64,000 bases of DNA from Eledone cirrhosa (lineage: Eukaryota), in contig OZ024743.1 in the NCBI GenBank assembly GCA_964016885.1, positions 169,322,001 to 169,386,000 of the forward strand. Reading direction: 5' to 3'. This document shows, piece by piece, positions 11,378 through 63,569 of this stretch; within the stretch, counting starts at the first letter, position 1, and each line of letters opens with the position of its first letter. Both the position numbers and the translations under genes were made by a program. The notes under the pieces are model-generated. The model did no database searches and was not told the DNA's origin. It saw only the letters and a list, made by a program, of their open reading frames with translations.

Positions 11378-12306
11378 AAATTTCAGGTTATCAATAATGT
11401 AGTGTAAATATATCGTTACGTTAGAGATGAACAGCGTACGTGCAGGTTTGCTCAACGAGTATAAATTATATTCCGGAGAAATGTAGAAAGGAAGAATATA
11501 AAATGAAAGTGCTTTTGTTAAAAAAGGAATTTATTAGGTATTGACATATGTTTCTGTAACAGACCGAATACCTATGAATCGCTGCTTGCGTAATCATATA
11601 ATGTTAGCAAGTATTCGATAGCAAATGTATAATCAGTTGTCACTTCTTCAGAGATTTTGGATAAACTGGATAAAATCAGAAAAATTGAAGTATTTATATT
11701 AGTAAAAGAGGAAGGAACAGAGGGGATAGAATATGACAGATGGTAAAATAATTTACTGCTAAACAAGTATATAATGGGTTTTTAATGAGAATACCATGAG
11801 TAAATCTAAATAAGAATTTTGGGAGTGCCAATTTTAATCTCTACTTGACCAACTGGACAGTGGACAGGGCTGGTCATTTGGTGCAGTAGTATTAATTAAT
11901 ACTACTGCACCAAATGACCAGCCCTGTCCACTGTCCAGTTGGTCAAGTAGAGATTAAAATTGGCACTCCCAAAATTCTTATTTAGATTTACTCATGGTAT
12001 TCTCATTAAAAACCCATTATATACTTGTTTAGCAGTAAATTATTTTACCATCTGTCATATTCTATCCCCTCTGTTCCTTCCTCTTTTACTAATATAAATA
12101 CTTCAATATTTCTGATTTTATCCAGTTTATCCAAAATCTCTGAAGAAGTGACAACTGATTATACATTTGCTATCGAATACTTGCTAACATTATATGATTA
12201 CGCAAGCAGCGATACATAGGTATTCGGTCTGTTACAGAACATATGTCAATACCTAATAAATTCCTTTTTTAACAAAAGCACTTTCATTTTATATTCTTCC
12301 TTTCTA
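11378..12306. mobile_element. Zero-spacer about 820-bp palindrome of a PLE-like 3' region
   Basis: 11484-11895 mirrors 11896-12306 about ATTAATTAAT with about 3 differences. HHR remnant GGTATT..GAAACATATGTC-AATACC lacks CTGATGA. Left arm has about 105 extra terminal bases. Confidence 0.8.
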
Positions 12307-12365
12307 TATATGTATATATATATATATATGTATATATATATATATATATATGTGTGTATATATTA

Positions 12366-12594
12366 GTGAAGGTGTGTGGCTGAGTGGGTAGAGAATTGGA
12401 TTCACAAACTTGAGATTGTGATTTCGATTCCTGGACCGGGCGATGCGTTTTGTCCTTGAGCAAGACACTTTTTTTCACGTTGTTCCTTCTACCTGGAGTT
12501 GCGACCGATAGATAGTATTAGCAACTGGAAAGACCGACGAAAACATTGTTTCCTCGGTCCGATTTGACGAAAGTCGATCGACTAAAGAAGAAGA
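12366..12594 (+). mobile_element. tRNA-derived SINE (octopus CORE-like family)
   Basis: A-box TGGCTGAGTGG, B-box-like GATTTCGATTCC, GTCCTTGAGCAAGACACTT domain. Copies at 13337-13522(-) and 17526-17754(+). Confidence 0.85.
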
Positions 12595-13336
12595 TATGTA
12601 TATATATATGTATATATATATATGTATATATATATGTTTATATATATGTATAAGTATATATGTATATATATATGTATATGTATATATATATGTATATATA
12701 TGTATATATATGCATGTATATATATGTATGTATATATATGTATATATATATATATATATATATATATATATATATATATATATATATATATTATTAAATA
12801 ACAGATTAAAGTTTAAGCAAAGAATCGCTGCTTTCACCCTTAACGGGATCTTCTGAAACTAACAAAGTCAATCTGTAAACGCAGAACTGGATATTTCAAA
12901 AAACGTTGCAACCGGACGAAGACAGGAAGACGATACTTTGGTTCGTGGAAACGTTCGCTGGCAAAGAACGAGAAAAAACGAATAATACGTCATTAATAGG
13001 AGCGGTGAAAAACAATTACGCGCAAAGACAGAACCACGTTTATGGTATAAAAGATGTCGTAGACTAATGTTCTCTTAGGTGGCGCATAGAGACGTTCCTT
13101 AGTCTTCAATTTTATTATTATTATTATATATATATATATATATTACTATATATATATATGTATATATGTATATATATATATATATATATATATATATATA
13201 TATATATATATATATATATATATATATATATATATATATATGTATATATACATATATATATATATATGTATGTATATGTATATGTATGTATATATATATA
13301 TATATATATATATATATATATATATATATATATATA

Positions 13337-13522
13337 ATCGATCGACTTTCGTCAAATCGGACCGAGGGAACAATGTTTCCGTTGGTCTTTCCAATTGCTA
13401 ATACTATCTATCGGTCGCAACTCCAGGTAGAAGGAGCAACGTGAAATAAAGTGTCTTGCTCAAGGACATAACGCATCACCTGGTCCAGTAATCGAACTCA
13501 CAACCTTACGATTGCGAATCCA
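13337..13522 (-). mobile_element. SINE, same family as 12366, 5'-truncated
   Basis: Reverse-complement similarity to 12400-12580. Confidence 0.85.
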
Positions 13523-14823
13523 ATATATATATATATATATATATATACATAGATGTATATATATATATGTTTGTATATATATATATATATATATATATAC
13601 ATATATGTATATATATATATATGTATATATATATATATATATATATATATATATATATATATATATATATATATATATATATATATGTATATATATATAT
13701 ATGTATGTATACATATATGTATATATATATATGTATGTATATATATATATACATATAAGTATATATATGTATATATATAATATATATATATATATATATA
13801 TATATATATATATATATACATATATATATATATACATATATATATATATATATATATATATATATATATTGTTATATTTGGGGAGGGTCATATTTGCGTA
13901 ATATTGCCAGAATTAATAACAGAACACACTCACTGTTTGGTTGGTTTTCGCTTCTCGCTGTCTTTTTTTTTTTGTCTTTTATATATATATATCTGCGATC
14001 TAACTTACTCGGTCCTCAATGTTGCCATTGACTGACCGGCGGTCAAAAATAATACAGATACAATATAGACAAACACATATATATATAGTTTACATAAATC
14101 TTTCATAAATATCTGTTTCGACACACGATTTCATATAAAAAACCTCGCAAAACTATATATATATATATATATATATATATCATATACATATACATACATA
14201 TATATATATATATATATATATATATGTATATATATATATATATATATATATGTATGTATATGTATATATATATATATATATATATATATATATATATATA
14301 TATATATATATATATATATATGTATGTATGTATGTATGTATGTATGTATATATATATATATATATGTATATGTGTATGTATGTATGTATGTATACATACC
14401 CCTTAGCCTTTGTGAAGGAAGTATTCTAGGAGAAGGAAAACTCTGATATAACACCTGCAACCCTGATGGTATCCAATGATGTTGACTTGTTCTTCTTTTT
14501 GGTAAATATCATCTTGGTTAAGAGAGTGGGACTGGCTTTGTGCAGTGCCTTTTCTCACTGTAAGGGCTTCACGGCACAGGCATTGCTTTGTATCTGGAGA
14601 TCTCTCTGCACTTGTCGTCACATGGTGCCATGGGTCCGGCACTCTGTGTCTTTAATTGTCACAAGTGTGGTGTTTGTGCCAGAGTTTTCGGGACACTGGC
14701 TGGACTAAGAGGTCACACTCGATCAGCGCATCGGTAGGGATTCTCCTACATGGATATGAAGTAGTGGCCGAACTCGAAAACGAGATGGCAGCCACCATAT
14801 ACATATATATATATATATATATA

Positions 14824-60950: not shown

Positions 60951-61030
60951 TTCTTAATTCCTTTTCCTCCCTATCCCCTCTACCTTATTCTTAACTGCTA
61001 CCTCCTCCTTTTCTGGCCTTCTCTCTATAC

Positions 61031-61306
61031 CAGGTATGGGCAATCTTTTTCGTGAAGCGGATCATATGAGATATGGATCATCATCAGGCGGGATAATTTG
61101 CAATCGTGGCCACATTAAAAACAAAAAGGGTGATAACTCAGGTTGTTGTGATTTGTTTCTTCAGAATTCGTACACGTTATTTTCCTCGATCGTAAAAATG
61201 ATCGAAAGATAAATTAGGACTGAAAACTTGGGGTAAAAAAGTCAGAAAGATTTCACTTAGGCGAGCCATTCAGAAAGCTTCGTGGGCCGCAGGTTGCCCA
61301 TGACTG
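61031..61306. mobile_element. hAT (Charlie-like) MITE
   Basis: TIR CAGGTATGGGCAA/TTGCCCATGACTG; 8-bp TSD CTCTATAC/CTTTATAC. Confidence 0.85.
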
Positions 61307-62880
61307 CTTTATACCTTCTCTATTCTCTCGACCATATATGGCAAACATCAAAACCTTCACCCATCACCAATGATCAAAGGATAATTGTTCCACATCACAG
61401 CACACAGATTGATAATGTGAAACTCTTTACTCCCATTCCCTCTCTACTATCACACTAATTTACTGTATTTTATTCTATTTTTATTGTCATTTTGATTTAT
61501 TTGTATTTTCTGAAGCGAAAATGCCATTTTTAACTGAACTTCGCATTCCTGAATTCTAGTTACTTCCACAAATAATTATAAGCTTTTTGAAGGAGTGTGA
61601 TAAATAATTAAGTATTGCATATGATTGAACAATATTCATTGTAGTCAGCATATGTAGACAATTAAAATAGATACAGAAACATGTTAAAGAAAATATATTC
61701 CTAATTTCCTTTCTCGCCGATGTTTAAATTTTTCTTGGTGTAATATTTGCTTACAACGAAATGACAAGACAACGAACGGAAATAAAACAAAGCGAAAAAC
61801 GATTTTTTTAAGGGAAACCTTAAAAATTATTTAAAAAAAATAAAAATACAACCCAAAGACATAGAACTTCATGGTCATCGACCGATGAGATGGACTTGTT
61901 CAGTTTCGGCCCCTACCAATGGTACTACGGGTCCATCTGGAGTCACAGCATCTGGCACAAGCCAAACACTGTCCAGTGGAGCAAGAGACGAGAGACAATA
62001 CATTAATTTATAGCCATTAAGCTAGAAAACAAAGAATTTTGTGTGGAATTAGGTAAAATGCCGTCATATTAATAGATAAACTTAAGAAAATTAATAAAGA
62101 ATGGACAAAACAACGAACAGAAATATATATATAGTATATATGATACATATATAACGGCGGCGAAGATTCGAAACCGAATGTGAGCTTTCCCGCCTCTGGG
62201 ACAAGCCGTGGTAACTTGTTTTCGCTCAAGAGACTAACACCTTGGGAGAGGCTAAACACAGGTCAGAGGTGTTTACGCCTGACAGAAAATAGGTCAGATG
62301 TTATATCCATCTTTCTGACTTGTTTACGCTTGGCAAACTAATCCCTTGGGGACTAACCAAAGTTCAGAGGATATATCTATCCTTCTAACTTCAACTCTTA
62401 TAAATACAGGGGTTGTTTACGCCTCGACAGAAAAGAAGTTATATACAGACAAGACAAGTCGCATTTACAAGCTCTCGTCACGAAAAACCAGTCTGCCACT
62501 TATTCTCACCTTCCTGGCTGATCGCTGACTCCTGCAATTCAAATAATTAAATATACTGATACGCACACACGCATTCATAGTGAGTTCAGGCACCATTTCT
62601 GTTTACACATATTGTACCTTTCTGATACAGTACAAATTATATTATAATCGTATTCTGTGATACTTGAATTTACGTGGCTCGAAGAGCCACCAAATTATTG
62701 TATGAATATTTTGTGTTATTGATTTTATCATTCAATATTCAAATTGAATATTGTTATAATAAAATAAACTTTGTAACAACACAAACCTGGTATTTTTCTT
62801 TACATCGAAACCACCATACCAACAGTTACATCCATCCATCCACTTATCGTTACAACCACACATAATATTCCGTTACCCAT

Positions 62881-63130
62881 ACTAGAAAAAGAGCCCATCG
62901 TTGAAGGGCACACCTTTTGCTAGTGTAAATAAAGAGCCCCTCTCTTCTCAGCCTGACCGTCTTTAAATAGCTCAGAACTCTGCTATTTTAGGGGAGAGAA
63001 AGATTTAAACTGTATGTTGACATGCCTCAAGAGCTAAATAACCAATGTATCAAATTTGAACAAAATTGGATAGAAACTGTGTAAAAGTATCGCCTGCATG
63101 CATACAGATAGACATTTTCGTTTGTATATA
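62881..63130 (-). mobile_element. Non-autonomous Helitron-like element
   Basis: ACTAG end with subterminal hairpin GCCC..GGGC; CATAC/AGAT microsatellite near the other end. Confidence 0.55.
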
Positions 63131-63142
63131 TATATATATATA

Positions 63143-63569
63143 TAATTAAAAGTTTAACAAGGTTCAATGAATTCATCAATGAATAAAGTTTCACAATAGA
63201 TTAGAAGCACTCTAGAGTGAGGTTTTCTGGAGTTATTAATATTACTTCAAAATATTAATAAATATAGACATTCATGTGATCAAATATATTTTATTATACA
63301 TATTTCAGAGATACTAAGCTATTTCAACAGTACGTCCTCATCAGATAAACTAAGCTGATGCCTGACATACCTTGACTATGTTGATGGTTATAATTTAGTC
63401 ATGGCAGTCATGACTAAATTATAACTATCAACATAGTCAAGGTATGTCAAGCATCAACTTATTTTATCTGATGAGGACGTACTGTTTAAATAGCTCAGTA
63501 TCTCTGAAATATGTATAACATATATTTGATCACATGAATGTCTATATTTATTAATATTTGAAGTAATAT
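63143..63569. mobile_element. PLE fold-back with an HHR in each arm, 5-bp spacer
   Basis: 63239-63403 mirrors 63409-63569. HHRs at 63290-63349(-) and 63462-63520(+): CTGATGA-GGACGTACTG..GAAATATGTATA. Confidence 0.88.

Follow-up and report, generated by a model that had tools for sequence, protein, structure and literature searches.

The window analyzed here, a stretch of 64,000 nucleotides (nt) of Eledone cirrhosa DNA (contig OZ024743.1, positions 169,322,001 to 169,386,000) from an animal genome of 3.0 Gb, is rich in (TA)n tracts and contains fold-backs, in which Hydra-clade Penelope-like elements (PLEs) have inserted head to head into such tracts. In these fold-backs, one arm ends just 5′ of a conserved hairpin (hairpin 1; short arm), and the other runs past hairpin 1 through a tail and ends just 5′ of a second copy of the motif (hairpin 2; long arm). 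Such mixed pairing was found in 98–99% of the short fold-backs of two families (G and D) counted genome-wide, compared to about half expected under independent choice of the ends. As judged from the sequences, one RNA is probably the template for reverse transcription from both cut strands of the (TA)n target, each strand priming at a different one of the two hairpins, which would fix the two arm ends.

After masking of the window, seven fold-backs were left and labelled B, C, D, E, F, G, and H. Their arms face outward, and every element 3′ end abuts a (TA)n tract. Family B (11376..12306) has a long arm on the minus strand with a 108-nt tail and a short arm on the plus strand ending at 12306. 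The same orientation is found in the short fold-backs of C (14826..15197; tail 89 nt, hammerhead core at 15097) and H (63143..63569; tail 96 nt, hammerhead cores at 63344, −, and 63468, +) and in D (23074..32312), in which the long arm (23074–27459, tail 137 nt) is separated by a spacer from the short arm ending at 32312 and a piece of the endonuclease open reading frame (ORF) is located at 27426–28511. In the remaining three the short arm is on the minus strand: E (32335..37357; short arm ending at 32335, long arm at ~37357, hammerhead core at 32430, −), the short fold-back of G (38322..38516; tail 79 nt), and F (37612..43159), where the short inverted arm (37612–39679) is followed by a decayed near-full-length copy (39678–43159, +) with a 78-nt tail. 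Hairpin 1 is located at 11450..11479 (−) in B, 14885..14909 (−) in C, 23126..23206 (−) in D, 37271..37290 (+) in E, 43088..43108 (+) in F, 38443..38466 (+) in G, and 63209..63233 (−) in H.

All eight ends singled out in the original prediction are junctions between an element and (TA)n. Seven of them terminate short arms that are paired with an inverted long arm, and the eighth, at 47125, is the short-site end of a solo E-like copy (44376..47125, +) for which no inverted partner was present within 43770–47130. The predicted position of the short end shortly before the RCTC of the motif was confirmed, but its upper range of 20 nt was not: the distance was 4–8 nt on reference copies, about 11 nt at the window copy ending at 37612, and about 4 nt at 47125, as judged from relatives. 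Similarly, the stagger of the arms was confirmed, but tails of 78, 79, 89, 95, 96, 108, and 137 nt replace the predicted extension of up to 430 nt. The 430-nt case (E) is composed of a 95-nt tail, a 114-nt insertion nested in it with an 18-nt duplication (37144/37258; 37144..37275 in total), and an unrelated repeat at 37362–37570. The motif had been called degenerate at two ends; it is so for the end at 12306 (TCTC/GAGC), whereas for 32312 it is intact, with a loop of 63 nt (23206–23126).

For the analysis of end positions, copies were fetched with queries from the sequence preceding the short end, which kept the type of end out of the selection, and the unbiased counts omit loci L001–030 (tail-biased query) as well as L241–260 and L397–399 (chosen exceptions). 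Among 428 unique ends of the seven families, 236 were short, 174 long, eight were tandem read-throughs, nine were located upstream, and a single one inside the tail. The two-mode distribution proposed as a check of the original prediction is thus present. The 142 divergent pairs of the seven families comprised 127 short/long pairs, six with read-through, two long/long pairs, one short/short pair, and six others. Genome-wide counts, made with exact patterns for short fold-backs only and giving 0 with reversed-pattern controls, revealed 11,929 mixed pairs among 12,186 in family G (115 short/short, 142 tail/tail) and 371 among 374 in family D (0 short/short, three tail/tail). When G tail/tail loci were viewed, just 3–4 of 10 were plain long/long pairs. 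Since 41 of 43 G junctions were distinct, the pairs represent independent events.

A later loss of one tail, either by trimming of one arm after insertion or as an assembly artefact, is extremely improbable as the origin of this pattern. Displacement of the tail by a later insertion was found in only one of ten exception loci lacking tails on both arms (L242, in which a TA tract displaced it). The rule is already present in young pairs with 99% identity, and old pairs show diverged arms and nested insertions. Moreover, exactly one arm would have to be trimmed in 98–99% of the cases, and the same ends occur in other animals, which refutes this explanation for the bulk of the pairs.

In each of the seven families, a second copy of the motif (RCTC..NN-GAGY-RCT) is located 2–6 nt beyond the long end and is followed by the start of the ORF, which places each end next to the 5′ side of its own motif copy. 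The idea of two priming positions on either side of one hairpin is therefore correct in assigning one fixed position to each arm, as supported by the bimodal ends and the pairing, but incomplete with respect to the hairpin, which is present twice. Hairpin 2 lies outside the terminal arms and is visible only in tandem read-through copies, such as that of F in the window (39730..39804, +), where it starts 2 nt beyond the long-end position (39678–39727 repeats the end of the tail) and precedes the ORF start codon at 39842. The two copies are 80–140 nt apart and have covarying stems. In a family-agnostic scan, the motif was found by sequence alone in 33 of 58 tail clusters compared to 2.7 (maximum 8) in shuffles, and an upper stem with a 2-nt 3′ bulge was paired at 86 of 99 positions compared to 55 with permuted partners, with chance values at bulges of 0, 1, 3, and 4 nt; as the clusters are related, these contrasts are not exact probabilities. 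After collapse to 21 distinct stems, 50 of 63 positions were paired compared to 32. The stem contains G-U pairs, which favours a role in RNA rather than in DNA.

The hairpins might alternatively function in transcription, in translation, or in the recognition of DNA by the endonuclease for target or self cleavage, with the ends being set solely by microhomology between UA and (TA)n. The TA-compatible bases at every end, the position of hairpin 2 near the ATG, and the reported requirement of the Penelope endonuclease for a tail on the DNA (cited in PMC11167929) fit this explanation. It is nevertheless very unlikely, as other TA sites are plentiful in these AT-rich regions, yet only 1 of 419 ends was internal to the tail; a spacing of 2–9 nt between end and motif is kept across families, and the G-U pairs point to RNA.

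Related hairpins were also found in Hydra elements of other animals. A first scan of metagenomes gave no relatives; a second one yielded 16 loci, of which L382, L384, and L385 have a clear pair of hairpins ahead of the ATG, L381 and L394 a degenerate or inverted pair, and L383, L386, and L390 hairpin 1 only; in the remaining loci the region or the motif is missing. Terminal copies in L382 and L384 end right before hairpin 2, and an inverted arm in L383 ends before hairpin 1. In published consensus sequences (PMC8557442 supplement), visual inspection revealed both hairpins in Hydra-1_Ajap and hairpin 1 in Hydra-2_Ajap, Hydra-2_Amil, and Hydra-1_Crog. In the D loci L231 and L265, which extend past the long end, the loop of hairpin 2 is 108 nt long, AT-rich, and bounded by GT..AG; it is possibly a retained intron of the 5′ untranslated region. 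Locus L311 is a full-length B copy that begins at hairpin 2 and has an inverted long-end stub of just 14 nt. As read from scrambled figure text, the printed RNA of the Anolis Poseidon PLE PAc (PMC11167929 Fig. S1) seems to contain two similar GGCCA..AGCC..GAC stretches ~40 nt apart, which would hint at a duplicated motif in Poseidon as well.

The relation between the two arms was analyzed with 43 pairs having a spacer of at least 40 nt; 104 pairs with smaller spacers were excluded from it, since the probe also recognizes unrelated palindromic sequences. In the 34 resolved cases, the spacer extended the long-end arm 17 times and the short-end arm 17 times. The predicted footprint of first- versus second-end integration was not demonstrated, as either arm may be the longer one, and a bias of solo copies described below is the lone hint in this direction. 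The result also bears on the published hypothesis (PMC3846280) that, after a single priming, snap-back self-priming on the cDNA or an antisense template generates the second strand; the point ahead of hairpin 1 where this strand stops or is joined would then be the short end. Numerous junctions form almost perfect palindromes, with a spacer that is short or missing, and variants are common to both arms, as this would predict. Snap-back assigns fixed roles to the arms, though, and expects the spacer on a constant arm type rather than 17:17, so that two cDNAs are favoured; hairpin 2 beside the long end would be unexplained, and there are junctions in which both arms reach position +1, each carries an extra G, and untemplated bases separate them (15019–15032 and several more in C). 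We consider snap-back largely refuted and quite unlikely.

The two arms share subfamily variants. In family G, 76 such variants were present in both arms and 16 in one arm (21/126 when shuffled), whereas variants private to a locus were in one arm in 28 cases and in both in two. Sharing was far beyond chance in G, C, and D. As locus-private changes are mostly one-armed, with the exception of young D copies, sharing dates from insertion and not from later conversion. This agreement is what copying of one RNA by both arms would give.

The arms of short fold-backs have a common 5′ limit in each family, located at an initiator-like TC|AYT, with TATA-like boxes ~30 nt upstream of +1 in G and H. Counted from the short end, this limit is at about −67 in G, −171 in C, −172 in H, −178 in E, and −215 in D. 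Where C arms starting at +1 carried a non-template base, it was G in 1,651 of 2,868 cases, whereas G makes up 14% of the bases in this region and was found in 6 of 53 cases at a control position. The extra G occurred on both arm types in D (six long and four short arms of 17) and H (five and five of 17). In the window, the C junction CATATC-AT-GATATG (15019..15032) joins two arms that both start at the presumed +1 A plus an extra G. For L1 elements, an extra G signals copying of the cap (PMC11702581), and we infer that both arms may have been reverse transcribed up to the 5′ end of a capped RNA whose start is located in the upstream pseudo-long terminal repeat (pseudo-LTR). An end of the short arms at the hammerhead cleavage site was considered and rejected, as the arms run through the core.

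Several observations weigh against twin priming on one RNA at two hairpins. Clear TATA boxes are restricted to G and H, the excess of extra G is modest in D (354 of 1,380) and absent in G (3 of 18), the C sample had it on short arms only (9 versus 0), and the partner arm could have templated 19 of the first 100 C rows with G. Pairing of hairpin 2, scored with a strict rule, is weak in this genome (14 of 21 upper-stem positions in seven copies; 0 of 3 in C and 1 of 3 in F); for the metagenome locus L382, in which that rule had chosen an inner GAGT, the outer stem was used. Single hairpins in several cases fold no better than shuffles, and the strict motif is missing in 25 of the 58 tail clusters, many of which are read-throughs, nested or other repeats, and some variants. 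Initiation by PAc has been reported to be non-homologous to the cut DNA (PMC11167929). Sharing of variants is weak in H, with 10 in both arms and 27 in one, and some G pairs join different subfamilies (e.g., L208), so that two RNAs are involved in at least some cases. Finally, of the 92 anchors selected, 56 lacked a partner in the surrounding ~9.5 kb, which shows that two-ended priming is not obligatory.

The discordant variants (one-arm alleles: 16 in G, 27 in H) are also what would be expected if two separate RNAs from one source locus were used, one per protomer, with an asymmetric complex forcing one site per strand, and co-expression from a single locus would likewise yield shared variants. 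This explanation offers no simple cause for mixed pairing in 98–99% of the cases when each RNA bears both hairpins, and we regard it as rather unlikely, even if less so than snap-back.

The 56 partnerless copies show that, under twin priming on one RNA, the second priming often fails or goes unused. Forty-one of them were short-ended and 13 long-ended, a bias that would be explained by a terminal pseudo-LTR bearing hairpin 1 only. The possibility that a very small inverted remnant had been overlooked in the solo short copies was rejected, since such a remnant was present in just one of the 41, a further point against two-ended priming being obligatory.

The assignment of the fold-backs to Hydra-clade PLEs is based on the following features. 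ORF pieces of fold-backs in the window encode a PLE-type reverse transcriptase (RT) and a C-terminal endonuclease. The young B copy L319 has an intact single ORF of 773 amino acids (L319:3588–5909), with RT followed by a C-terminal GIY-YIG-type endonuclease, and contains the motifs RWKT, ADKT, CNCVQPGMC, CRLC (CxxC), and CNH (CxH), whereas CCHH is absent; D119, K120, C630, C632, and C638 are invariant across 42 relatives. The window pieces are 41% (RT) and 37% (endonuclease) identical to this protein. The F copy in the window carries RWK, DKT, and CxCX5C motifs, found in F pieces as RWKA, SDKT, and CSCRVKSEC, and for C, G, and H N-terminal protein pieces at most, or none, were seen. RWK, DKT, and CxCX5C without CCHH are the signature of the Hydra clade (PMC8557442). 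The best database matches are 33–38% identical over the full length, and protein P0005 shares peptides with the published Hydra-2_Amil protein. The structure predicted for the L319 ORF (predicted local distance difference test score, pLDDT, 85.9) has telomerase reverse transcriptases as its closest PDB folds; PLE structures were not found in the PDB searches. Pfam gave no clear match for the PLE proteins except a weak one to RVT_1, and the endonuclease is a putative assignment from motifs (IVYKC..YYVG) rather than a profile.

Candidate hammerhead cores (CUGAnGA..GAAA) precede the short end in B, C, D, E, F, and H, and the G core is non-canonical; a search of the window with Rfam gathering thresholds gave 0 matches, hammerhead included. 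The insertion target is (TA)n, which forms both flanks, and a partial tandem (pseudo-LTR), an inverted 5′-truncated copy, and a one-end tail, the complex insertion structure of endonuclease-containing PLEs, are all present. Two other assignments were rejected: Naiad PLEs have an N-terminal endonuclease and DKA, compared to a C-terminal endonuclease and DKT here, and miniature inverted-repeat transposable elements (MITEs) or other DNA transposons with terminal inverted repeats have equal ends and a fixed interior, compared to staggered ends and differing G junctions.

In the mechanism that we propose, the RNA would start at the TC|AYT initiator in the upstream pseudo-LTR, be putatively capped, and contain in this order the cap, hammerhead, short site, hairpin 1, long site, hairpin 2, and ORF. 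The hairpins would be docking sites for the RT/endonuclease protein, probably for two protomers, which would cut both (TA)n strands. Each nicked (TA)n 3′ end might then pair with the UA just 5′ of one hairpin and prime there, and the two cDNAs would extend toward the RNA 5′ end and be joined end to end or by microhomology. A linear RNA template would give the abundant short palindromes. As the ORF is located downstream of the hairpins, arms longer than the pseudo-LTR would need a tandem or circular RNA. More generally, the duplicated RNA element may be a conserved part of Hydra PLEs, retained across corals, echinoderms, and this genome, and may dock two RT protomers on one capped RNA so that each cut strand is primed next to its own hairpin, with the tail as the spacer between the docks. 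We see even chances for this proposal, which would amount to programmed two-site twin priming by relatives of telomerase (its sister group) that use a structured RNA element 3′ of a short UA alignment site.

One-end tails on inverted PLE insertions are already in print (PMC8557442, PMC3846280, PMC8969392). In vitro, PAc cuts and extends both strands, two internal RT starts bound the tail, and the protein is a predicted dimer (PMC11167929). The original prediction thus rediscovered a known shape and a published conclusion; the tail and the two start sites had been published before, and the twin hairpins and the strict pairing are the addition made here, neither being found in the literature searched. 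With the Hydra clade (Craig et al., 2021, PMC8557442) the elements share RWK, DKT, CxCX5C, the lack of CCHH, the C-terminal endonuclease, a putative hammerhead in the 3′ region, the (TA)n target, partial tandems, the inverted 5′-truncated copy, and the one-end tail, which is 78–137 nt here compared to 30–40 bp there. The available parts of that paper do not mention twin hairpins, strict one-tail pairing, or a shared 5′ limit, but the motif is visible in its consensuses. PLE ends are not discussed in the available part of PMC13282606.

With PAc (Frangieh et al., 2024, PMC11167929) they have in common a template at the junction of pseudo-LTR and ORF, the tail between two RT starts, the apparent dispensability of hammerhead cleavage, and cutting and extension of both target strands. 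The PAc sites coincide in part with the ORF and with an AC-rich stem-loop and showed neither target homology nor strand preference, whereas the sites described here precede the ATG, are compatible with TA, each have a copy of the repeated motif next to them, and exclude each other within an insertion. As in L1 twin priming (PMC11702581), both target ends would prime on one RNA, with inversion and an extra G at full-length 5′ ends. In L1, the internal site of the second priming varies and the resulting pieces are non-overlapping, whereas here both sites are fixed and the same region is copied by both arms. Adineta Penelope elements (Arkhipova et al., 2013, PMC3846280) likewise have head-to-head arms, a one-arm tail, and an initiator-like TCACT in the pseudo-LTR; self-priming was favoured in that study, whereas the present data favour two primed cDNAs.

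Further inverted or partnerless copies are present in the window. An H-like long arm (18148..18401, −) with hairpin 1 at 18234–18207 has no partner in the window, and the same holds true for another long arm with hairpin 1 at 63596–63793 (−). The repeat at 37362–37570 represents a further family of TA-flanked fold-backs, of which it is a long arm with a variant tail motif; this family is also present at L351 and L200. The inverted pair 20378–20610 / 22467–22694 has an RCTC..GAGC tail according to the family-agnostic scan, and a further inverted pair is located at 43365–43427 / 43582–43644. The B short arm and its flank (11895–12591) are directly duplicated 5.16 kb apart (17055–17751) with 99.8–100% identity, representing either a recent tandem duplication or an assembly artefact. 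An interspersed repeat of ~100–190 nt with 18-nt duplications is inserted into PLE arms at several sites of the window (23418–23523, 34527–34630, 36460–36550, 37166–37263, 46667–46718, 48098–48203, and 52982–53059); in D, its 18-nt duplication starts exactly at the presumed +1. At 393–1505, a short ORF is surrounded by inverted repeats of 188 nt (98%) with subrepeats of 34 nt, an arrangement that resembles elements of the DNA-transposon type. Decayed pieces of non-LTR RTs of other families were recognized by eye at 7479–8534, 9419–10747, 49217–51165, and 55910–58339, and a GC-rich minisatellite with a 48-nt unit is located at 3146–3711.

How inverted copies and tails on one side arise in PLEs is recognized in the field as unsolved; mechanistic work on it has been called for (PMC8557442), and the later steps of insertion were left unvalidated for PAc (PMC11167929). 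A concrete cis-element, base-exact predictions of the start sites, and an intact ORF in the same genome make the model directly testable. The tens of thousands of TA-flanked short palindromes in this genome (11,929 in one family) are aborted products of PLEs that might be taken for MITEs.

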